Shown: one piece after another, positions 6,416 through 41,439 of the stretch
Layout: each line of letters opens with the position of its first letter
Numbering within the stretch: the first letter of the stretch is position 1
NCBI GenBank assembly: GCA_964016885.1
Contig: OZ024742.1
Span: 68,324,001 to 68,388,000, forward strand
Direction of reading: 5' to 3'
Source: Eledone cirrhosa
Lineage: Eukaryota
Length of the DNA stretch: 64,000 nt
Translations under genes and position numbers: made by a program
Notes under the pieces: generated by a model
The model's input: the letters and a program-made list of their open reading frames with translations, nothing else
Databases searched by the model: none
Told to the model about the DNA's origin: nothing

Positions 6416-7541
6416 CATGGTGTCGTCTGCACACAGGGTGTTGGCTCAGGGTGCGGTATTGTGGAAATCTGTTGGTGGATTGTATTTAGAGTCATGCTCG
6501 TGTGTGCATGTGTACTGTATGGACCTATAGGTATGTATGCCAGTATAAAGGGATGATTGCGTGTACATATGTACTGGGTGTGTATCTACGGGTGTGCACA
6601 ATTAATGTTGGGAAATATCTTAAACTCCTCATGTAGTAATAGAAAAGGTTAATCAGGGCTTGCTCAGAGAGGATAAGCATCATTTGCAATGCTTTCAACA
6701 CCGTCCACACTTAATCTTCATCCATTATTCCTATATTGAGAGAGCAAGCCTACCAGTGCGTGTGAGACGGTTTTTAACCATTCGCGCATCTTGAACAGGT
6801 TCGATTTCTGACGGCTCCTGCAAGGTCATGTTCATAGAATTTAGCTGAGACAAATTAGTACCGTCAGACAAAAGTCATCCAAAAATTGTCCAAAATACCT
6901 AAACTAAAAATGATCAAGAGGAGACAATTCAGATAGGGTAGAATCACACCTCGGCTATCATCCCTAATATCTTCCCCTAGTTCTCTATAGCATGTGATGA
7001 TTGACTTTCCGCTGATCACATAGTCTAGCTGGTAAAATGCTGTCAAAATCTGATAATTTTTTAATTCCAAAGGCCCAACCACGGTTTACGCTTGACCCAG
7101 GACTGTAGTTTGGTCAAGAAGAGGAACAGCGTAAAGTGTCACAGGTATAGTAACGGTGTTTCTCGTTCAAGTATATCTGCAAATGTGCCAATCTCAGTGT
7201 TTGCCTGTGCATCATTATTGATCGCATACAGACGACCTCGTGTTTTGGAGACTAAAATAATTGAACCTTCTGGCCAGTGGAATGTATACCATCCCCAAGA
7301 AGCAAAATAGCAATAATAATGTCTATTTCTTCAATAGTATTATTAGTAACTCATGTATTATATAGATGGATATATAGAAAGAGAAATATATAAGTCGGGA
7401 GGCAGGGAAACAGATACATACATGCATGTGTGGAAGGCAAACCTGTGAGGGCATATATGTGTACACATAGTTAAATATGGGGATACGTAACTAGATAGAT
7501 CGATAAAGAGAGAGAGTGTGTGAAATTGGGGGAGAGAGCGG

Positions 7542-7619
<78 letters not shown>
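7542..7619. repeat. (GATA)n microsatellite
   Basis: Direct reading. Confidence 0.97.
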
Positions 7620-7808
7620 GTTACAGATTTTGGCCAAGGTGCTAGCAAAGAGGTTGGCGCTTGTCGTGGGCAACCTGGTGGGAGATGCGCAGACATGCGC
7701 TATCCCGTCCAGGTCCATCCATGACAACCTCCACCTCATGCGATACATCATAGAGAGGGTTGGGAACGAACCCGGCTTTGGTGGGGAATGGTATCCTAGA
7801 TGCACGCT
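7617..7808 (+). mobile_element. Short Tx1 RT fragment in opposite orientation, between GATA arrays
   Basis: Encodes AKVLAKRLALVVGNLVGDAQTCAIPSRSIHDNLHLMRYIIERVG, matching 9745-9910 (minus). Confidence 0.9.
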
Positions 7809-8054
7809 GATAGATAGATAGATAGATAGATAGATAAGTTTCTATTTATTTGCCACAAGGGCACAAAAGAAAGGGACAAATACAAGGGGGTGGGGGAGTT
7901 TACATACAATAAAACGAGTACAAAAATATAACAAATAAAATGAAACAATCGAAGTCCTCAATGGGGAGGGGGCGTTTTGGGGTCGCACACACCCCCGAAA
8001 AAATGTGCAACCCTCCTCCTCGGGAGCACAAAAAGAGGGCGCTCCCTTCTTCCT

Positions 8055-11000
8055 CTACCTTTTTCGCCTACAGCCTGATATAGAGAGAAGCCCATTCACA
8101 CGGGCCATTCTCGCTACTTTCACCCACCTTTCATAAAACTGGCTGGGGTGGAGCACCTCTCTCTCCATCTTGATCCTTCTTCCGAAATGGTATCGGAAGA
8201 AGAGGACCAGTTGTTGGCCGGAGAGAAAGGTGTCCGACCTCAGCCCTTTCAATCGTGTCCACCATATAACCTCTTTCACGATGGCTATTACGCACAGAAA
8301 CACCACCTCTCCTTCATTTTTGAAGGAGGAGGCGGCTTGATCGTTACAATAGACTCGGTGGTCAACCGGATTGGTCCCACCCGTGACAGCATCGTTCGAC
8401 ATAGCCCCGCAGATTGGCGAAGCCCGGGCATTGTACCAATGCGTGCGCAACGGTTTCCTCGTCGCGCACGCATCTGGGACAGATCTTTTTCGAGAAGTCC
8501 CTACCCGGGCGCCCGTGTCTGTAGAGCTTTTCACGAACGGGCAGAGCCCCTCGGTGGCACTGCCAGGCCATGGACCTCTGGAAGTTGTCCAAAGATCCCG
8601 GCCGAAATGTCCTACTGAGCAGGCTCGCCAGTTCGTCTTCCTCCATGACTAGGGCTTCTCCAAGGGCGTCGTCGCACCTGCTGCGCACCAGCCTTCTATA
8701 GAATGTCGAGGTGGAGTCTCCACTGATAGCCAGGTCCGCCCGCCAGAGAGCCGTGAGCGCTTGGGCACACTCAGTGTGCCAGGTGCCCAGTTTTCTCGGT
8801 CTTTACTTGACCCAGGATTGCAGCTCGGTGAGTGAGACGAGTCTCGGAAAGGTTCGTCTGACAAACGGAGCCCACACCGGTTGACCGGTGAGGAATGCCT
8901 GGAGGTACCGTAGCCTTAATGCGTGTTTACGCATCAGCATCCACGGTATCCTCAGCCCTCCTTTCGAAGGGTGTTGACAGCAGATGGATCTCCTCACCAA
9001 AGGTGCCAGCTTCTTCCAAAGGAATTGGAAGAGTGCGCGCTCCAATTTGGTGAGCGTTTCCCTTTGTCAGGCAGTAGTAGATGACGGACGCTATATAAGT
9101 GTTCTCCACCTCCACCCGACCTTTCATGGGTAGTTTGCACTCGGCCCATTTCTGGGTCAGTGCAAACACCATGTTCGATAAATCACCCCAGTTCTTCTCC
9201 ACCTGGAGGTCTGGTCCAAACCAGACCCCGAGCAACTTCACCGGGCCCTCCGTCCAGCGTCTGACGACGCCATCGGAGGGCATCGGTTTGCCCCTCCACG
9301 TGCCGAGTTGCAAACCGATCGACTTGTCCCGGTTCAGCCTAGCCCCTGTAAACCTCCCATACTCCTCCAGTAAGGTGCCGATCTCCCCGATTTCCGAGGT
9401 GGTCGACACCATTACTATTACGTCATAGGCGTAGGCCGACACCGCTTTCCGCAATCCCGGTTCCAAAGGGATGCCCTGCAACAACTCCAACTTCCGCAGC
9501 AGTGGCTCGAGGGCCTATACATACAGAAGAGAGGAGAGAGGGCACCCCTGTCGGATGGACCGCGTGATTTCGAACGACTCCGAGAGGTAGCTGTTCACCT
9601 TGACTCTAGAGCAGATGCGGCTGCTGTGCATGGCAGTGATCCAGCCCCTGAAAACGGGTCCGAAACCTGCCGCCGCTAGCACCGCAACCAGGTAACAATG
9701 GTCGACCCTATCAAACGGCTTAGATTGATCCAAGATGATCAGTGCCCCACCAAAGCCAGATTCATTCCCTACCCTCTCTATGATGTATTGCATGAGGTGG
9801 AGGTTGTCGTGAATGGACCTGGACGGGACAGCGCATTTCTGCGCATCTTCCACCAGGTTGCCCACGCAAGCGCCAACCGCTTTGCTAACACCTTGGCCAA
9901 AATCTTTAACTCCGCATTTAGCAGAGTTATGGGCCTAAAATTGCTAATCTCATCCCCCGTCTCATTCTCCCGTTCTGTTGCCAGTTGCAGTAGACCGCCT
10001 CGAGGAGATCGGAGAACAAGTCCGGCATAGCTAAATAAAGTTCGTATGGAAGACCATCGAGGCCCGGGGATTTGTGTTTGCCGCATTGGCTCAGCACGTC
10101 CCCTATTTCAGCAGCTGAGATCGGCCTCTCGCAGGACTTCGCCTCCTCGTCCGAAAGACACGGCAGGCGGTCGAGGAATGGACCGACGTCCACATCCCCA
10201 TCCGGCCCCCCGTCCCTCCCGAACAATCGGGCAAAGTGCCTTTGAAAGGTCTCACACATCTGCTTAGGTTCAAGGATCACCCGTCCATCCTGGTCTCGCA
10301 AAGACCGGATAGTGGATCTAATCCCTCTTTTGGCTTCTGTCACGTGGGCCCAGCTAACAGCTTTGGTCTCCTCGTTTCCTAGAGCACGTATTTTGCTTCG
10401 GACAACGTAGCCTTCGGGCTTCGCGTAAAAGAACTGGCCCAATGTCGTTCTCGACGCTAGCGCACTAGCCACGTCGCCGCTTCTAATTGCCTCTTCTACA
10501 TTATCTACCAACTCCCTTTTCTTCCTATTTCTATCTGAGGCTAACTCCTTACTAAATCCTATTGAAACTACTCTAATCTTTTTTTTTTAGAGATCCCCAC
10601 CATCTGCTGTTGACGATCGCTCCCGTCAACCGCTCCTTAACTAAAGTACTAATCCGGTCCCTGTACACTTTACTTGCCGATAAGGACAAGTTCAGTTTCC
10701 AGTAACTGGGTCCCTGTCTCTGGGTTCTATCAATGTTAAGTATGCAGGTCACTAATTTGTGATCCGAATAGACAACCATGAGCATCTCTGGACAGCTTAA
10801 AAGGTCCCTATCCTTATTTCTAACTAGGACCCTATCTAGGTACGACCTAGATGATCCGCTGCGGTTCGCCCAAGTCCAAGTTGGCGCAGTCGGAAAATCT
10901 AGTCTATATCTATCGGCCAGGTCAAATCGGACGATTAACCCCTTGAGGCTGTTTCACCCCCCCCCCCCCCCCCCAGCAGAACGACAACCCCTCCCCCACT

Positions 11001-11196
11001 TCCGGGCTGACTGAGAAATGCGTGCATCTCAAAGTCGTCAAAGGTGGGGGGCTAGCTGGCGCACGCTGCTGATCCGGGCCTCGCAAATGACCATCACATT
11101 TATACAGCGTGACCTGGGGTCATTTAGAAGTTTTGCCTGCTTCCAATATGAGCCCAGGCCAGACACATTTAGACAAGCCACTGTCAATACAGCCAT
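8055..11196 (-). pseudogene. Tx1 ORF2 (APE endonuclease, RT, C-terminal zinc finger), frameshifted
   Basis: MAVLTVACLNVSGLG (APE start), YSDHKLV, YWKLN, KSPGLDGLPYELY, NFRPITLLNAELKILAK, LDQSKPFDRVDH, SIRQGCPLSSLLY, SAYAYDV (YADD mutated), CPRC..DEETVAHALVQC. Confidence 0.92.
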
Positions 11197-11892
11197 GTTG
11201 GTGGTAAAGAGAAAAAGGAGGCACCTACCTCTCTGCGTCCTGAGGACCAGGCCGCACAATTTACATGGGAGTGGGGGAGGGGTTGAATGGTGGGGTGGAG
11301 GTTTGTGGTAGTGTGGGGGCATCAGTGTGTGGTGGGGTTGGGGTGTTTGGAGTTGTGTGGGTGTTTGGGGAGGGGGTGGGGAATTTTTTTAGGAGGACGC
11401 GCTTAATGGGTCCAACGCAGGGGGGGGGACGTCCTCTTTAAAATTGTCCCTTAAAATGTTGTATATGTCCTTGGGACTTTTATCATTTTGAGGTGGGAAA
11501 AATCCCCTGCCTGGGTGAAGTAAGGCCCTTCGGTATTTACCAAATTGTTATTATAAATAATGTTCAACAGTTTTTTGTTTCTTGTGTTTATGTATGTGTA
11601 TGCATATTTTTGTTTTTGTGTGGTGTTTTTTGTTTGCTGTTGTTGTGTGTTCTTTTGTGTTGATGTCTGTGTTATGTTTTGGGGTGGGGTTGTTTTTATT
11701 TGTGTGCCTGAGGTGTGTTTTCTTTTTTTTCTTTTAACTTTTTGGAAATGCTCCCCCTCGTCTGACGACGAACGGGGGTCGTCTTCCGTGTTGGAGGGGA
11801 GGGGTAAATTTTCGGGTAGTGTTTGCGGTGTGGGTGCTTTGGAAATTGTTTTTTGAGCGGGGGGGATGGGTTGGACAGTGTTTTGTTTTGTG

Positions 11893-12901
11893 TTAACTTG
11901 TGGTTGTTGTTTTTTGTAGTGGTGGTGGTGGTGATTGTGTTGGTTGTGTAGTTGTTGGTGGTGTGGGCAGAATTGGAGTTTTCTTTTTAAGTTGAGGACA
12001 AACAGCCCTCAGGTAACTTCTGGTTGAACAGAGGTAACACGAGGGCCGCCTACCTTCAACGGTAATGTTTATAAAAGTTTGGTCATCAAGTATGACGTGT
12101 TCAGGGATCTGGGCGATCCTTTCGGGCCTCATTTGAACTAAACGTTCGAGGCCCGTTCCACTGAACGCGTCACCTGATGCCTTTCCCATGGATATCAATA
12201 TGTCATCGTTCAGGTCAAGAAAACCTGTTAACACCCACCATATGTCCATAATTGGAAGAATGGTGTGTATTTTTATTTTCTGTGTCCTTCTACCCATGTA
12301 CGTAGGGTAGAAGGTGTATGCGGTGGATGTAATAGGTTTTACCGAAAGTTTTTTTGCCGTGTCCTGGTCCTTCATGAGAATGGATAGACTCCCATAGAGT
12401 CTATCCTTTTGTATGAACAGAATGTCTTTCATTACATCTTTTAAAACCAGCTCTATGTCACTCTGTGATGGTTGAGCTGGTCCTTTCGTTTTATTTAACA
12501 GTGTCCTAAACATCACTGTGTTTAGGACTCTCTGACCTTTTAGTTCCGGGGGGGAGTGGATCGAAAATGATCCATTTTCCCCGTATACTATGTATTTTTT
12601 GGCTTCTGCCAGTAGCTCCTTAGCGTTGCTTATGTCTACTGGCAGGTATTCAAAGTTGTTGTTTTTTTTTTGTAGTTTGGACAAAGGAAACCTTTCCATT
12701 ATCCTTGTACCCGTTGTTTTCTTTTTCGTTGCTTTTTTCTATTTTTTCTGTGTTTTCTTTGTCCATGTTGATGTTGTTTTGCAGTTTCTGTGTGTTTGTG
12801 TTTTTGGTGTTTGTGTCATTTGTATTTTCATACAATTTCATGTTAACATTTTGGGGGTTTTTACCCACATTTTCACAATTTACAGTAGAAACATTGTGCA
12901 T
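11893..12901 (-). pseudogene. Tx1 ORF1 (gag-like nucleic-acid-binding protein), frameshifted near the poly-T at about 12660
   Basis: Upstream of ORF2 on the same strand; ITVEGRRPSCYLCSTRSYLRAVCP is a degenerate CCHC knuckle; P/T-rich tail. Confidence 0.8.
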
Positions 12902-13960
12902 AATCGTATTTGAAAGTGAGAGAGGGAAGTTTCAATTACATTCATTTGTTGTTCCTTTCTCTCACTTTCGTCAGGGGGCGTGGCAGAGTTGTTGTTGTTC
13001 ATGGCGTCCATTATTGACATATACGTCAACAAAAATGTTTAAAAGGTAGTTTTTACCCCCAAAAGGGGTAAAAATAAAATTACCTTCGTCTACAAACTTA
13101 GGCGGGAGGTTAATTCACACCGGGACACAAAATACAAACAAACACTTACTGTTAACACGTAAAATATTCCAAAAAAGACAGGAGCTGAAGTTACCTATGT
13201 CTATATCATCCGACGATCGATAGATAGAAAGATTGGTAGATGTAAACAGGACATGGGTGAAAATTATAAGTTAGGTGTGAATATTCAGCGAAAAAATTAA
13301 TTGTAGAGACAGAAGTAAATTATTTGACTAAAATTGTCCATAATGTATGGCACCTTTTATAAAACAACGAGAATTGTCTAGGGAAAATGTGGAGAATTCT
13401 GAATTAGTATCAATTTACGATATATTTAATAAAGATGAAAATAGTGCTAATTATCAGTGTGGAAAGAAATATTGTTCTTGAAAGTTCAGCCATCTCAAAT
13501 ATATATACATGTGTATGTGTGCGAGTATGTGTATATGTAACAGTCAATAGCCAAATTGTTAGATTATGGCCCAAAATGGCTCGCTTTATTTTCCCCGCGT
13601 TTTTTTTTTTACATTATGCGTTCAATCCCGCCAAGATGAACGGTAGCTTTCAACTTTCCGAGTTAGTTATAAAAATAAATATAACCTAATAATTAAGAGT
13701 GAGAGTTCATAAAGGAGCTCGATTTCGTTTTGAACAGCGTCGAATATATGGAGAGGAGAGGCATATTGGTCTAAGTGCTTTCGGCTAAAAAGAGCTTTCT
13801 CAAGAAACTTGCCCATGACATTGTTCTTGAAAGTACATTCTAGTGTTACTTCACCGTGATCTTCCAATAAAGTCGGTACCATATATATTATATTGTATTA
13901 ACAAGTAAGTATGTTTTGAAACAGCGAGCAAGTTTGAAATTAGAAATGGAAGCTTTCACC

Positions 13961-17568: not shown

Positions 17569-18655
17569 CTATCCATTAGGGTATAACGTGGGGCTGTAAT
17601 ACAGGAAAGTTTTGTGCAATTTATGTTTACAAGCCGAAATTGCCTCAGATTTTTTGTTTAAGATGTGGTCTGTGGCGTAGAGTATTTCCAGGGCCTCAGC
17701 GGCGCAGAGGCCACAAGGTCTTTTATTTCCGTTATACGATCTAGCCCTAGCTAGGATCTCCCAGTGTAACTTATATTGGGTGTGGTTGTCTTTTAGACTC
17801 CAGATATAAGCTGAAAGTGACGTCATATTCCTTCTTAGAGGGTAACGAAAAGAATGGGTATGCGTGTAAAGACGCTGCTTGAATCTATTGGCGGTTAACC
17901 CTACTGGACGTGGGTGTTACAAACTTACATTTGTAGACAATGTTACTAGAGAGGCATTTCCCGGATAGGGGGCAATCAACCCGATTCCTACAATTACAGT
18001 TAGTACTAACTACAGGGTTGCACGTGTTCCTACGGCTAGGTAGTTTAGCTAAATTTGAAGCTGTGATGTTATGTGCAAGGTTAGGAGTCGTAGAGTAAGA
18101 AATTTTAATTGTATTTCTATTAAAAATTTTACTATATTTATGTGTAGGGGGAAAATGCTTCGTAAAAAGGGAAAGAAAGATCTTAGCTAATGGTGTGGCC
18201 ATCTGCATATTATATGGTGGGTTATACCAACAAATGCGACGGGATCTATTTCTTCTAGGTCTATTTTCGTACTCTGTATATGCTACCTTATCGACAAATC
18301 CACTTTGAGCAAGGGCTTCATTGTAATACATGGATTGGTTGTTGAAAATACGCTCGTTGGTGGAAAGACGGGAAAGCCTCAACGAAACGTTTCTTACCAG
18401 GTTCTTGGTTATGCTGGCAGGATGGTTGGAATGCTTACTTATGTAATTAAGCGTATCATTCGGCTTTCTATACGGGTAATACAACCCATTCAATAAATTG
18501 AGAGTAATGTCAAGGTAATTAACGACCGAGAGATTGGCCTCAACCTGTATAGAGAAGTTGAAGCCTTTAAAGAAGGGTGTGAGTTCTTTTCTGAACCTGT
18601 CGCAAGCACGAGGTCCGCACTTAGTCATGGTCAAAAGACCATCGTCACGACGGTT
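17569..18655 (-). mobile_element. Penelope-like element fragment: RT C-terminal half + GIY-YIG endonuclease
   Basis: RDDGL, VNYLDITLNL, YPYRKPND, WYNPPYN, CNCRNRVDCPL, SSNIVYKC, FKQRLYTHTHSFR, CGLCAAE, LNKKSEAISACKH; 5'-truncated near a (TA)n array. Confidence 0.92.
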
Positions 18656-18717
18656 CTTATATATTTGATATATATTTATCCTTATCGAGCCCTCTTTAGT
18701 CTTGAAATTTATTATTA

Positions 18718-18797
<80 letters not shown>

Positions 18798-19080
18798 TAT
18801 AAATATATATAAATATATAAATATGTATATATATATATATAGTTAAAAGAATAGAGGTGTAACACACAAGTTATTATATATTGGTAAACGGAATAGAAAA
18901 TGCTGACAAATTGTTCACAGTTGAAAAATGGTTTAATTAGGAATAAAAGAGTATTAGTGATTGTATGGGTTAGTATTCAGTTGTGGTTTTAAGTTTTTAA
19001 GTTTTTACCGGTTGCGCATTTCTAAATGGTTTTCAAAAATAATTTTGAGATAGAGTGTCCGTGCTGTTTGCTATATATAT

Positions 19081-20177
19081 ACCAGATAGAAAAATGCGTA
19101 CAGCAAAAAAAAAGTAATATTGTTGGAATATAAACCTTTAAAAATACAGGACAAGAAACTAAAATAAAACTTTAAAAGAATAGGACAAGGAACTAAGATA
19201 AAACTTTAAATGAATAGGTCAAGAAACTAAGATAAAACTTTAAAGAATTGGACAAGAAATAAAAAATGTTATTATAATATTAGTGGCAAAATTTTTATTG
19301 GTAAAAAATCGAGTTCCACATTCATAGGCTCTGGGTTCCACATTCAGAGGTCGTCGTCAGACCGGCGGGATCATTTGATCCTGGTTTGAACACCAATTGG
19401 GCCATAACCATACCCCTATTTCATCATTCGGCGACACGCCTCATGTGTCATGCATAATGTGAATGGACCCATGGGCCCATGAGCACAGATCTTGAGTAGC
19501 AGCGGACGGTCTTGTCGTCCCGCTCATCCTTGATCTTGACCAACCCGTCCATCTTCTCCTTGCATCTTGTCCTTGAGTTCAAGTCCGGCAGTCCAGATGA
19601 ATGCGTGCCACAGCTTTCTGGTACAGGAAGGGGGAGCAGGAAGACTGGAGGGATGACGAGACAGAGGGAGGGAGGACCGGTGGTTGAGGGAGGTGCCGTA
19701 GTCGGTGGTCAGAGTCGACATCTTGTCTCGGTCGTCTTCTCCATCTTCGTCCGGTGTTGCGGGACCAGAAGTGCATTCTTGGAGGAAACCTGCAGCTGCA
19801 TCGGCCAATTCTTCTTGCAATGGTCATTCTGAAGGAGCAGAACTGCTCAGCCAACCAACCCCAACCAGAACCAACCGCTCAGGGGCAACGCACAATGAGA
19901 GCATGACAATTATTATGCACTAATCAAGAAGATACTGGGGCATAGCACAGGAAACGAATAAAAAAATTTTGCCACTAATATTATTGTAAAATGTTTTATT
20001 TCTTGTCCAATTCTTTAAAGTTTTATCTTAGTTTCTTGTCCTATTCATTTAAAGTTTTATCTTAGTTTCTTGTCCTATTCTTTTAAAGTTTTATTTTAGT
20101 TTCTTGTCCTGTATTTTTAAAGGTTTATATTCCAACAATATTACTTTTTTTTTGCTGTACGCATTTTTCTATCTGGT
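19081..20177. mobile_element. 1.1-kb element with about 220-bp inverted repeats (internal 33-34-bp subrepeats) around a GC-rich core
   Basis: 19081-19299 is a near-perfect reverse complement of 19957-20177; subrepeat ggacaagaaactaagataaaactttaaa occurs about 4 times per arm. Confidence 0.75.
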
Positions 20178-30339: not shown

Positions 30340-30401
30340 ATCTACAATATTATTATCTGTGCCGTTTTTCTTGATGTCAGCCCTTGTGGCCAATAAAGAA
30401 A

Positions 30402-30463
<62 letters not shown>

Positions 30464-31028: not shown

Positions 31029-31225
31029 GGGGGTGAGAGAGAGAGAGAGAGAGAGGTGGGGGTTAGTTTTCTCTACTCTATATCTATATTGCATTTAATT
31101 TGTTTTCATACAGGAGTATTTTTTATGGTTTAATACTTGTCAGATATATTGTAGATAAATAAGTATATCAGTCCGTTGATCGACAGAAAAACAGACATAC
31201 AAATATATAGTGAGATAGATAGATA

Positions 31226-32190
31226 ATTTTCTTTTTATTTGCCACCAGGGCATAAAAAAAAGTACAATGGGGGGAGTTTACATAAAAAGGCGTCCTCAAT
31301 AAGGAGGAGGCAATAACAAAATATAAAAATAAAATAAAATATAACAAAGTAAAATTTATAACAAAATCCTCAATAGGTAGGAGGCGCATTGGGGGGTCGC
31401 ACACACCCCCGAAAAAAAGTGTGCAACCCTTCTCCTCAGGAGCACAGAGAGGGGGTGCTCCCTTGGTCTTTCATCTTCCTCACCTATAGTCTGGTGTAGA
31501 GTGAAGGCCCATTCACACGGGCCATTCTCGCCACTTTCACCCATCTTTCATAAAAACGGCTGGGGTGCAGCACCTCTCTCTCCATCCTGATCCTTCTTCC
31601 GAAATGATATCGGAAGAAACGGACCAGTTGTTGGCCAGAGAGAAAGGTGTCTGACCTCAGTCCTTTCAGACGCGTCCACCATACAACCTCTTTCGCCATG
31701 GCTATTACGCACAGAAACACCGCCTCTCCTTCGTTTTTGAAGAGGGGGGGGGGCTTGATCGTTACAATAGACTCGGTGGTCAACCGGATCGGTCCCACCC
31801 TTGACAGCAGTTGTTCGACATAGCCCCACAGATCGGCAATGCCCGAGCAGTGTACCAATGCGTGTGCAACGGTTTCCTCGTCGCACACGCATCTGGGACA
31901 GATCTTTTTCGAGAGGTCCCTACCCGGGCGCCCGTGTCTGTAGAGCCTTTCTCGAACGGGTAGAGCCCTTCTGTAGCACTGCCAGGCCAGGGACCTCTGG
32001 AAGTTATCCATGGGTCCCAGGCTGAATGTCCTACCGAACAGGTTGGCCAGTTCATCTTCCTACATGCCTAGGGCTTCTCCTAGGGTGTCGTCGCACCTGC
32101 TAACCACCAGCCCTCTATAGAATGACGAGGTGGATTCTCCACTGACAGCCGGGTCCGCCTGCCAGAGAGCCGTGAGCTCCTGGGCACACT
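31226..32190 (-). mobile_element. 5'-truncated Tx1 copy in (GATA)n
   Basis: DNFQRSLAWQCYRRALPVRERLY..CPRC..HALVHC and a 3'UTR like 7837-8050; GATA repeats on both sides. Confidence 0.93.
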
Positions 32191-32217
32191 AGTTAGATAG
32201 ATAGATAGATAGATAGT

Positions 32218-32283
<66 letters not shown>

Positions 32284-32291
32284 GGTAGATA

Positions 32292-34286
32292 TGTTTCTTT
32301 ATTAGCCAAGGGGCACAAAAGAAGGGGACAAATACAAAGGGGGAAGTTTACATACAATAAAAACGTGTAAAATGCTATCACAAATGTAATTTAAAAATTA
32401 ATCGATTTTCCCGAATAGGGGGAGACATTTCATATGGGTAACACATACCCCCGAAAAAATGTGCAACCCTCATCTCCAGGAGTACGGAGTGTTTGTACCC
32501 CTTTCCTCTCTTCCTTTTTTCCTCAACCTACAGGCTGATATAGAGAGAAGGCCCATTGACTCGGGCCATTCTCGCCACATCACCCACCTTTCATAAAACT
32601 TGCTGGGGTACAGCACCTCTCTCTCCATCCTGATTCTTCTTCCAAAGTGGTATTTGAAAAAAAGAATCAGTTGATGGCCGGAGTGAAAGGTGTCTGACAT
32701 CAACCCTTTTAACCTCGTCCACCATACAACCTCTTTCGCCATAGCTATCACAAAAAGGAAAACCGCCTCTCCTTCGTTTTTGAAGGGTGGTGGCGGTTTG
32801 ATCATGACAATAGACTCGGTGGTCAACCGGATTACTCCCACCCACGACAATAGTCGTTCTACATAGCCCCACAGGTCGGTAACGCCCGGGCAGTGTATGA
32901 ATGCGTGCGCGACGGTTTCTTCGTCTCGCACGCATCTCGGACAGATCTTTATCGAAGGGTCCCTGCCCGGGCGCCCATGTCTGTAGAGCTTGTCTCGAAC
33001 TGGTAGAGCTCCTCGGTTGCACTGCCAGGCCAGGGACTTTTGGAAGTTGTCGATCGGTCCCGGGCGGAAGATCCTACCGAACAGACTGGCCAGTTCATCT
33101 TCATCTACGCCTAGAGTTTCTCCGAGCGCGTCGCCGCACTTGCTGCGGATCAGCCCTCTATACAATGACGAAATGGAGTCTCCACTGATCGCCGGGTCAG
33201 CCTGCCAGAGGGCTGTGAGCGCCTGAGCACATTCGATGTGCCAGTCGCCCATTTTCCTCGTTCTTTGCTTGACCCAGGACTGCAGATCGGTCAGCGAGAC
33301 AAGTCGTGGGAAGGCTCACCTCACGTACAGGGCCCACACCGGTTGTCCGGTGAGGAATACGTAGAGATGCCGCAGCCTGAGCGCGTGTTTGCGCATCGTC
33401 AGCCACGGCATCCCAAGCCCTCCGTTGGAAGGGTGTTGGCAGCAGATGGATCTTCTCACTAAAGGAACCCGCTTCTTCCAAAGGAATTGGAAGAGCGCCC
33501 GCTACATTTTGGTGAGCGTTTTGGCTGGACAAGGCACGACGGCCAAGCGGTAGTAGATGACGGACGCTATAAAAGTGTTCGCCACCTCCGCTCGACTTTT
33601 CAAGAATAGTTGGCACTCGGCCCACTTCTGAGTGACTGCAAACACCTTGGCGGTCACCTCGTTCCAGTTTTTCTCCACCTGGAAGTCCGGACCAAACCAG
33701 ACCACAAGCATCTTTACTGGTCCTTCCGTCCAGCGTCCGACGACGCCATCGGAAGGCATCGGTTTGCCTCTTCACGTTCCAAGTTGCAAACCGACGGACT
33801 TGTCCCGGTTCAGCTTCGCTCCAGTGAACCTTTCGTATTCCTTCAGTAAGGTGCCGACCTCCTCGGTTTGGGAGGTGCTCGACACCACTACTGTCACGTC
33901 GTCGGCGTAGGCCGACGCCGCTTCTGGAGTCCCTGTTCTAGAGGGATGCCCTGCAATAGCTCCAACTTCGGCAGTAGTGGCTCGAGAGACAGTACGTACA
34001 GAAGGGAGGAGAGAGGGCATCCCTGTCGGATGGATCGCGTGATATGGAATGGGTCCGAGAGGTAGCCGTTCACCTTGACGCTTGAGCAGATATTGCTGTT
34101 GTGCATTGCAGCAATCCAGCCCCTGAACACGGGTCCGCAGCCTGCCGCCTCAAGCACCGCATCCAAGTAACGATGGTCAACCCTATCGAAACCCTTAGAC
34201 TGATCTAAGTTTATCAGGGCTCCACCGAAGCCGGGTTTACACCCTACCCTCTATATGATGTATCGCATGAGGTGGAGGTTGTCGTG
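32292..34286 (-). mobile_element. 5'-truncated Tx1 copy in (GATA)n
   Basis: SIRQGCPLSSLLY, SAYADDV and zinc finger; GATA arrays at 32195-32291 and 34291-34402. Confidence 0.93.
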
Positions 34287-34290
34287 ATAA

Positions 34291-34375
<85 letters not shown>

Positions 34376-34442
34376 CAGATAGATAGATAGATAGATAGAT
34401 AGGGAAATTGACTATGTATGTCTCAGGTTTAGACTATTTATA

Positions 34443-40599: not shown

Positions 40600-41242
40600 T
40601 GAGTTAATATCTGTATACAACAACTACGCGATGGGACCCACCCACAGCCTCGGCAGACAGAATGGAGTAGGCGTTTCCCCGGACAACGGCAAGGGAGACG
40701 CGCTGGAAAAGCCACTCCAACTCGCGGGGCTCACTCCTGCGGCTGGACAGCTCAGCGCTTATGATGGTGAGTAAGGAGGTAGCCCTGGGGCCGAGGACAC
40801 CAGAAGTCTACACTGCCAGGGGTACGACCGCAAACCTGTCGGAGAGCGACCGGTATTTGAGGAGTTTGGTCCCCTCAGCCCGACGTGCAGCAGAACCTGG
40901 GTCAGTCGCAGACTGCACCAGGTTGCGGCTGCAGAAAGTGTCGGTGCAAGTGGCATCCCAGACGAGGGGTTTGCCACCGCGGAACGGGAAGATGGTCATG
41001 CCATCTGGCCTTTTGCCGTCCCCTCGATCCAGCCCCACCGGCTCGAGCTGGGAAGGGAAGCCTGCAGCGTCCAAGCCATGCTTAATGACCTCATTGAGGG
41101 CAGCATTGCGTAGAATGCGGCCGGCACTGTGGCGACAAGAAAGTGGGTGGAGGCCGAAAGAGTCCACGGTGGAACCGCAGCGACATTGGTGTGGCTGGCA
41201 GATCGAGAGGCCGAGCCTCAGGGAAACGCCGATTCGCAGGCT
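40600..41242 (-). mobile_element. 3' fragment of a REL-endonuclease non-LTR retrotransposon (CRE-like)
   Basis: HPLSC knuckle, RNAALNEVI, LEPVGLDRGDGKRPDGMTIFPF, LVWDATC, KLLKY, SLAVVRGNAYSIL. Confidence 0.85.
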
Positions 41243-41439
41243 ATGGTTTTTGTTATTTTTCTATTAAGATGACGAATGTTTGTACAGATATAGAAAAGCT
41301 ATTGTGAAAACCGATAGATATTTGTTATATTTACAATTTAGTTAGTTAGGAAAGGATAACGCCAAAGATATTTTACTTTTCTCGGATGATGGGGCTCTTT
41401 GGAGGAAGGACTGACATTATTCTTAATCTGGAGGCCTGT

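Follow-up and report, generated by a model that had tools for sequence, protein, structure and literature searches.

A 64,000-nt stretch of the Eledone cirrhosa genome (contig OZ024742.1, positions 68,324,001 to 68,388,000; this whole stretch is referred to as the window) contains three minus-strand copies, A, B and C, of a long interspersed nuclear element (LINE) with a Tx1-like architecture, all of which adjoin GATA repeats, read as TATC on the sense strand of the element. The original prediction, made from the letters of the window, had proposed that these are insertions of a Tx1-clade LINE targeted to (GATA)n. Copy A is apparently full-length, while B and C are truncated at their 5' ends (Table 1). 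A BLAST search of the window with copy A (7837-13218) returned B (31228-32190, 87% identity over 857 nt) and C (32293-34287, 80% over 2006 nt), together with a piece on the opposite strand, fragment D (7618-7786, 92%), that was absent from the original prediction. Across their common 3' 0.95 kb, A, B and C are only 79-84% identical, and the copies are therefore old or derived from different subfamilies. Reads and contigs mapped to 7787-13320 gave very deep, 3'-biased coverage in two organisms, a pattern as for a high-copy LINE with mostly 5'-truncated copies; the mapping took in four of the nine listed runs and depth there is no measure of copy number. In run X2 position 13198 was covered by several contigs, whereas depth at 13256 did not exceed that of the flank.

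Table 1. Features of the element, its copies and their flanks, with positions in the window.
Feature	Position	Strand	Remarks
Copy A	7837..13218	-	apparently full-length, decayed LINE with two open reading frames (ORFs)
Copy B	31226..32189	-	5'-truncated, about 0.96 kb
Copy C	32292..34285	-	5'-truncated within reverse transcriptase (RT), about 2.0 kb
ORF1 of A	11200..13020	-	broken, with approximate bounds; contains an RRM-like region and, near 12050-11990, a decayed CCHC knuckle
ORF2 of A	8068..11196	-	interrupted by stop codons and frameshifts; encodes APE, RT and a zinc region at the C-terminus
APE endonuclease of A	10582..11196	-	internal deletion of ~250 nt; PF03372 only at E 0.015
RT domain of A	9062..9975	-	PF00078 E 5.7e-14 for 9062-9865
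(GATA)7 at 3' joint of A	7809..7836	+	
GATA at 5' joint of A	13219..13242	+	2.5 perfect units plus degenerate ones; duplication length ambiguous, 8 to 24 nt
Left flank of B	31208..31225	+	left half of likely 18-nt target-site duplication; 1 mismatch
Right flank of B	32190..32207	+	right half of likely duplication; start of array 32190-32291
Left flank of C	32268..32291	+	left half of likely 22-24-nt duplication; irregular unit AATA
About (GATA)29 at truncated 5' joint of C	34286..34402	+	its first 24 nt correspond to 32268-32291
(GATA)19 left of D	7542..7619	+	
Fragment D	7618..7786	+	169-nt RT piece, inverted relative to A, without the element 3' end
Relic E	6618..7227	-	old and diverged remnant of an ORF2 from the lineage of A-C; its ends could not be defined
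Fragment F	30357..30403	+	47 nt, 3'-terminal motif as in A-C

ORF1 of copy A gave no Pfam match of its own; it matched Atlas zf-CCHC/RRM clusters at 0.91-0.93 and is homologous to the ORF1 of the sister clade described below (E 3.6e-9). The zinc region at the C-terminus of ORF2 is represented in copy C by a zf-RVT match (PF13966, E 1.9e-6) at about 32869-33039. A profile of the A APE domain and 11 relatives matched, among solved structures, L1 ORF2p (E 4e-159) and R2 (1e-48), L1 ORF2p being the closest. An N-terminal APE, an RT and a C-terminal zinc region, closest to L1 ORF2p, are the hallmarks of the L1/Tx1 architecture, and an ORF1 with RRM-like domains and a CCHC knuckle (decayed in A) is expected of Tx1, in which such an ORF1 is found but not exclusively. 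The L1/Tx1-type part of the proposed Tx1-clade assignment thus stands, while membership of the RT in Tx1 is putative, as named sequences of L1, Tx1L, Keno, Kibi and Koshi are absent from the trees.

As numbered against full-length relatives, the APE domain of copy A has kept its first ~70 residues and the sequence from about position 160 onwards; ~88 residues, including the YAP and GDWN motifs, are missing, and the deletion joint is a C18 run (10957-10974). Homologues of the domain came from a HMMER search, a word-based search having given none. In a close relative (P0223, a fragment 74% identical over 42 aa) these 88 residues are present and include both motifs, indicating that the loss is likely specific to copy A and that the family, judged from these motifs, likely had a working enzyme. 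The APE hairpin loop was counted by a pattern that matched 12 of 13 sequences: A and three relatives have 9 residues, while of the remaining sequences seven have 11 and one has 10. RNA of the 3' end folds no better than shuffled sequences (z -0.3 to -1.5), and no conserved 3' stem-loop was supported.

On the sense strand the 3' joint consists of AATAAA, 6-8 nt and then TATC in all three copies, and its phase is identical in 3/3. At the other side, the truncated 5' end of C adjoins about (GATA)29 (34286-34402), that of B adjoins ~25 GATA units (32190-32291), and the 5' end of A adjoins 2.5 perfect units followed by four degenerate ones (13219-13242). BLAST and joint inspection therefore bear out the view that the three minus-strand insertions (at 7837, 31226 and 32292) have GATA at both ends and that two of them are stacked in one array, 32190-32291 being common to the 5' joint of B and the 3' joint of C. 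The general lack of GATA at truncated 5' joints had been named as the sign of a repeat that is only an element-encoded tail; GATA is present at 2/2 such joints (B and C). In RTE and CR1-L3 elements the repeat is restricted to the 3' end and carried by the element, whereas here GATA lies beyond truncated 5' ends.

The sequences flanking C are 24-nt direct repeats (32268-32291 and 34286-34309) with one mismatch, both of which contain an AATA unit that occurs in no other place among the eight array stretches parsed; the rough chance that such a unit is shared by both flanks is 0.02. The automatic scan did not pick out this 24-mer, because longer pure-repeat alignments score higher, and the call rests on the shared variant unit. 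Copy B is flanked by 18-nt direct repeats that begin with the irregular TAGT(G/T)A and also differ at one position, and all three GATA units at its 3' end fall within the repeat. The direct repeats of B and C, with their shared irregular units, are likely target-site duplications, and the 3' GATA is therefore likely target DNA and not a tail. The duplication made by Tx1L is about 23 nt. Insertion into pre-existing GATA arrays is thus supported locally.

Loci of at least 20 nt in the window comprise 44 TA, 16 CA/TG, 6 GA/TC and 6 GATA, in agreement with the original prediction that TA and CA arrays are more plentiful than GATA. None of A-D adjoins any of the 44 TA or 16 CA/TG loci. A (GATA)3 lies within 8 nt to the right of 0.8% of 54,790 non-element sites, so that the truncated joint of C alone has p ~0.008. 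The GATA arrays that lie at 385 and 47581 carry no insertion of the element. The copies A, B and C do share one strand orientation, as had been claimed, but every GATA array in the window is on the plus strand and D is opposite, which makes the common orientation weak evidence when taken alone.

Several observations weigh against GATA targeting, or limit its scope. There are only three insertions of the kind expected from target-primed reverse transcription, at two original GATA loci, and the 5' flank of A holds only 2.5 perfect units. Duplications within microsatellites are fragile evidence: there is one mismatch in each pair, slippage copies repeat variants, and GTTA recurs 24 nt further on. 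The endonuclease of copy A is, by its sequence, dead. Fragment D, located between (GATA)19 and (GATA)7, is in GATA in the opposite orientation; its joints display short matches between GATA and element sequence, and capture or second-strand priming may explain how it arose. Fragment F, which has the 3' motif of A-C, sits between (ATT)3 and (ATT)24 and may come from an ATT-targeted relative or from another family that shares the element end. Given D and F, 'strictly GATA, one orientation' is too strong. Relic E, which is 32-34% identical to the element at the amino-acid level and 62% at the nucleotide level, is without a clean GATA joint, its last match ending ~200 nt from (GT)51. Searches of genome, metagenome and viral contigs, by locus and by junction pattern, yielded no further near-clade locus with flanks, and the sister-clade loci L006-L047 are free of GATA arrays. 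An AG/AT-rich stretch at ~7358-7392 was considered as decayed GATA belonging to relic E and rejected, as TA and GA runs also resemble degenerate GATA.

Among 108 RT homologues, Argonauta hians provides the best match with a name (61%); a cuttlefish protein is also present, and one homologue (35%) is named 'Transposon TX1 uncharacterized 149 kDa protein'. Taken by themselves, these homologues point to a likely octopod host. RT trees were built from 27 chosen rows (careful) and from 51 of 111 rows (quick), with an unresolved backbone. In the 27-row tree copy A groups with four near relatives (100/99), and this near clade is sister to a group that forms arrays (together 100/100). The TC-flanked group lies apart from both clades, in agreement with the 51-row tree, and a grouping of the near clade with the TC-flanked group to the exclusion of the sister group was rejected by the approximately unbiased (AU) test (p-AU 1.8e-10). 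The RT phylogeny, which had been proposed as a check, thus points to a cephalopod-linked clade for the element, as far as RT sequences can place it, and does not nest it with Kibi-type elements. A locus search with the near-clade alignment returned five loci, all distant and all in metagenome contigs; the genome and viral contigs gave none. With a broader alignment, 42 loci were obtained from genome contigs, 40 of them in a single bacterial bin (G001), and viral contigs again gave none. Junction-pattern searches gave 0 matches in one case, and otherwise 26 in prokaryote-titled records and one viral, which were taken as chance.

The G001 bin has host-like contigs with 72 matches to P0002. Its sister-clade elements (L006-L047) are intact and stand in head-to-tail arrays with periods of ~6.4-6.9 kb, in which tail-less units are separated by 11-20-nt non-repeat spacers that differ between subfamilies. 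Among 40 distinct junction contexts, poly(A) was found in none and three short-repeat units within 40 nt in one. Both edges of one array carry the same 18-mer (2 mismatches), like a duplication; as the spacers are common to several contigs, they may instead be carried by the element. A telomeric reading of these arrays was set aside, ordinary DNA being present at both the 5' and 3' array edges. The sister clade resembles A-C in its RT (~54% to P0001), its homologous ORF1, a hairpin-like motif before AATAAA and the lack of a tail, and differs in its intact head-to-tail arrays with non-repeat spacers and no GATA. The G001 loci (L006-L047 and L058-L063) are eukaryote-like contigs in a bacterial bin, a contamination flag, with an odd self-stacking insertion pattern. 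A second bacterial bin of 17.8 Mb (G002, L044) has more than 2,300 GATA 16-mer matches and many LINE-like RT matches, and likely holds much eukaryotic DNA. A metagenome contig (L001, 1-5678) bears a complete and intact Tx1-type element with an ORF1 of 446 aa, an ORF2 of 1314 aa and TC repeats at both ends; the 3' end of L002 has GGGTTT(T)-like repeats, and near 2040-2123 of L003 a LINE remnant is followed by what we take to be a histone H3 coding sequence.

The account that we favour, and consider probable with some reserve, is that A-C belong to a family that inserts into GATA by target-primed reverse transcription after a nick made by its own APE. The endonuclease is predicted to cut the GATA strand between A and G, and cDNA synthesis would then start from the freed 3' end at the tail-less end of the RNA, 6-8 nt beyond AATAAA; the flanking duplication would result from a second nick at a distance of 18-24 nt. 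Every insertion would leave GATA on both sides and the array would remain a target, which would explain the stacking of B and C. The target is set by the endonuclease in Tx1L and in R1-type elements, as described in the texts of PMC4494074, PMC1950540 and PMC1919474. We infer that the GATA preference is family-wide and that the APE endonuclease may be what sets it.

The same flanks, phase and duplications are predicted by a second, rather unlikely explanation, in which transcripts read through into the downstream (TATC)n and the RNA end pairs with nicked GATA, the endonuclease itself being loose. An effect of 3' repeats on priming sites has been proposed for RTE elements (text of PMC6007223), and the GATA-element matches at the D joints are in keeping with pairing of this kind, as is the occurrence of the terminal motif with ATT in F, which would follow if read-through ends differed between subfamilies. 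Copy B, however, adds no GATA beyond its duplication, and Tx1 specificity, in the systems described in the texts cited here, maps to the endonuclease. The predicted minor-groove loop, two residues shorter in A and three relatives than in most sister or Kibi-like elements, is a further hint, and a hint only, towards the enzyme. Guided priming and APE targeting both entail a real GATA preference, which, counting the two together, we regard as highly probable.

Less likely again is that there is no real targeting, insertion being broad or into any simple repeat, with GATA flanks due to chance or retention and with F and E as non-GATA copies of the same family. The sample is small, the window is very rich in microsatellites, F is in ATT, E is near GT and D is reversed; set against this are four events in GATA with none in the 60 TA/CA loci, and a chance of 0.008 per truncated joint. 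F has only the terminal motif in common with A-C, and E has diverged much further (62% nt); the two may thus belong to families other than this one. The least probable proposal, that an element-encoded (TATC)n tail seeded the arrays as CR1-L3 does in snakes or as in RTE 3' microsatellites, is consistent with TATC after all three 3' ends and with documented microsatellite seeding and RTE tails (texts of PMC8303610 and PMC9115989), yet is already largely refuted here, as it cannot explain the ~29 units beyond the truncated 5' end of C, where no other element end was found, the GATA at the 3' end of B lies wholly within the duplication, and sister elements are tail-less.

Other features of the window are as follows. 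At 17885-18976 on the minus strand there is an open frame with no Pfam match, the C-terminal part of which resembles, by eye, a Penelope-type RT with a GIY-YIG remnant. A 150-aa frame at 40808-41260 (minus strand), also without a Pfam match, has a cysteine/histidine cluster and, again by eye, the look of a restriction-like endonuclease as in some LINE C-termini. An APE-like remnant at 2526-2996 on the plus strand (PF03372, E 0.023) gave no match from relatives of the element described here. Two tandem arrays with a 34-bp period (19130-19264 and 19999-20128), ~0.7 kb apart and with units that are apparently reverse complements, are like the ends of a foldback element or a miniature inverted-repeat transposable element (MITE).

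The choice of microsatellite targets by APE-type retrotransposons is described as poorly understood in the text of PMC3812793. A GATA-preferring family adds a mixed-base target with a likely independent origin, and the sister clade, with intact proteins and another insertion pattern, allows loop-swap and nicking comparisons. In practical terms, a high-copy LINE may interrupt or border the GATA microsatellites used as markers in these animals. As targeting of microsatellites by Tx1 elements is already established, the finding extends a catalogue and opens no new class. A broader scenario, which we put forward tentatively and think doubtful, is that a cephalopod Tx1-like lineage gained microsatellite targeting independently of Kibi/Koshi and that its families split by target (GATA in A-C, ATT behind F and self-renewing arrays in the sister clade), with the loop shorter by two residues marking the microsatellite branch. 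If true, the families of this lineage would form a natural series in which changes in the target of an APE endonuclease could be followed.

Microsatellite targets listed for APE-type elements in the text of PMC3812793 are ACAY and AC (Waldo and Mino), TC (Kibi), TTC (Koshi) and TAA (Dong), and crocodilian Tx1 families target (TTCC)n/(TTTC)n (PMC4494074). Neither GATA nor TATC occurs in the running text of PMC4494074, further targets being listed in its Fig. 3 and supplements. The repeat annotation of O. vulgaris has 80 L1-Tx1 consensus families, 13 of them recently active (PMC13282606), a bin that, compared by description only, probably holds the present family; its main text has no instance of 'target' or 'GATA', and one supplement none of 'GATA' or 'TATC'. 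Full-text literature searches, made without Kojima and Fujiwara 2004, Repbase and Dfam, returned no paper on a GATA-targeted Tx1 element, and the family may already be catalogued.

Tx1L of Xenopus laevis is, like this element, a two-ORF APE-RT element and has a sequence-specific endonuclease (text of PMC1950540); it differs in targeting the Tx1D transposon. A hairpin loop helps to set targets in L1-type enzymes, and that of Tx1L, the beta-B6/B5 loop, has 11 residues (PMC1950540), while the loop of the present element is two residues shorter than those of the sister clade and L001. The element on L001 has the same layout as A-C and was termed Kibi-like from its flanks; its RT is only 37% identical to that of this element. 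With Kibi and Koshi of fish and the crocodilian Tx1 families the element shares a two-ORF APE-RT organization, a microsatellite site with the pyrimidine-rich side as sense, and the lack of poly(A), and in three copies at two loci the microsatellite lies on both sides of the insertion. In contrast to these families, the target here is (TATC)n/GATA and not (TC)n, (TTC)n, (TTCC)n or (TTTC)n, and the nearest sister group of the RT lies outside microsatellites instead of the RT being nested with Kibi-type elements. The element is thus likely to represent a GATA-preferring Tx1-like family that works as Kibi and Koshi do, and departs from that lineage in these two defining respects.

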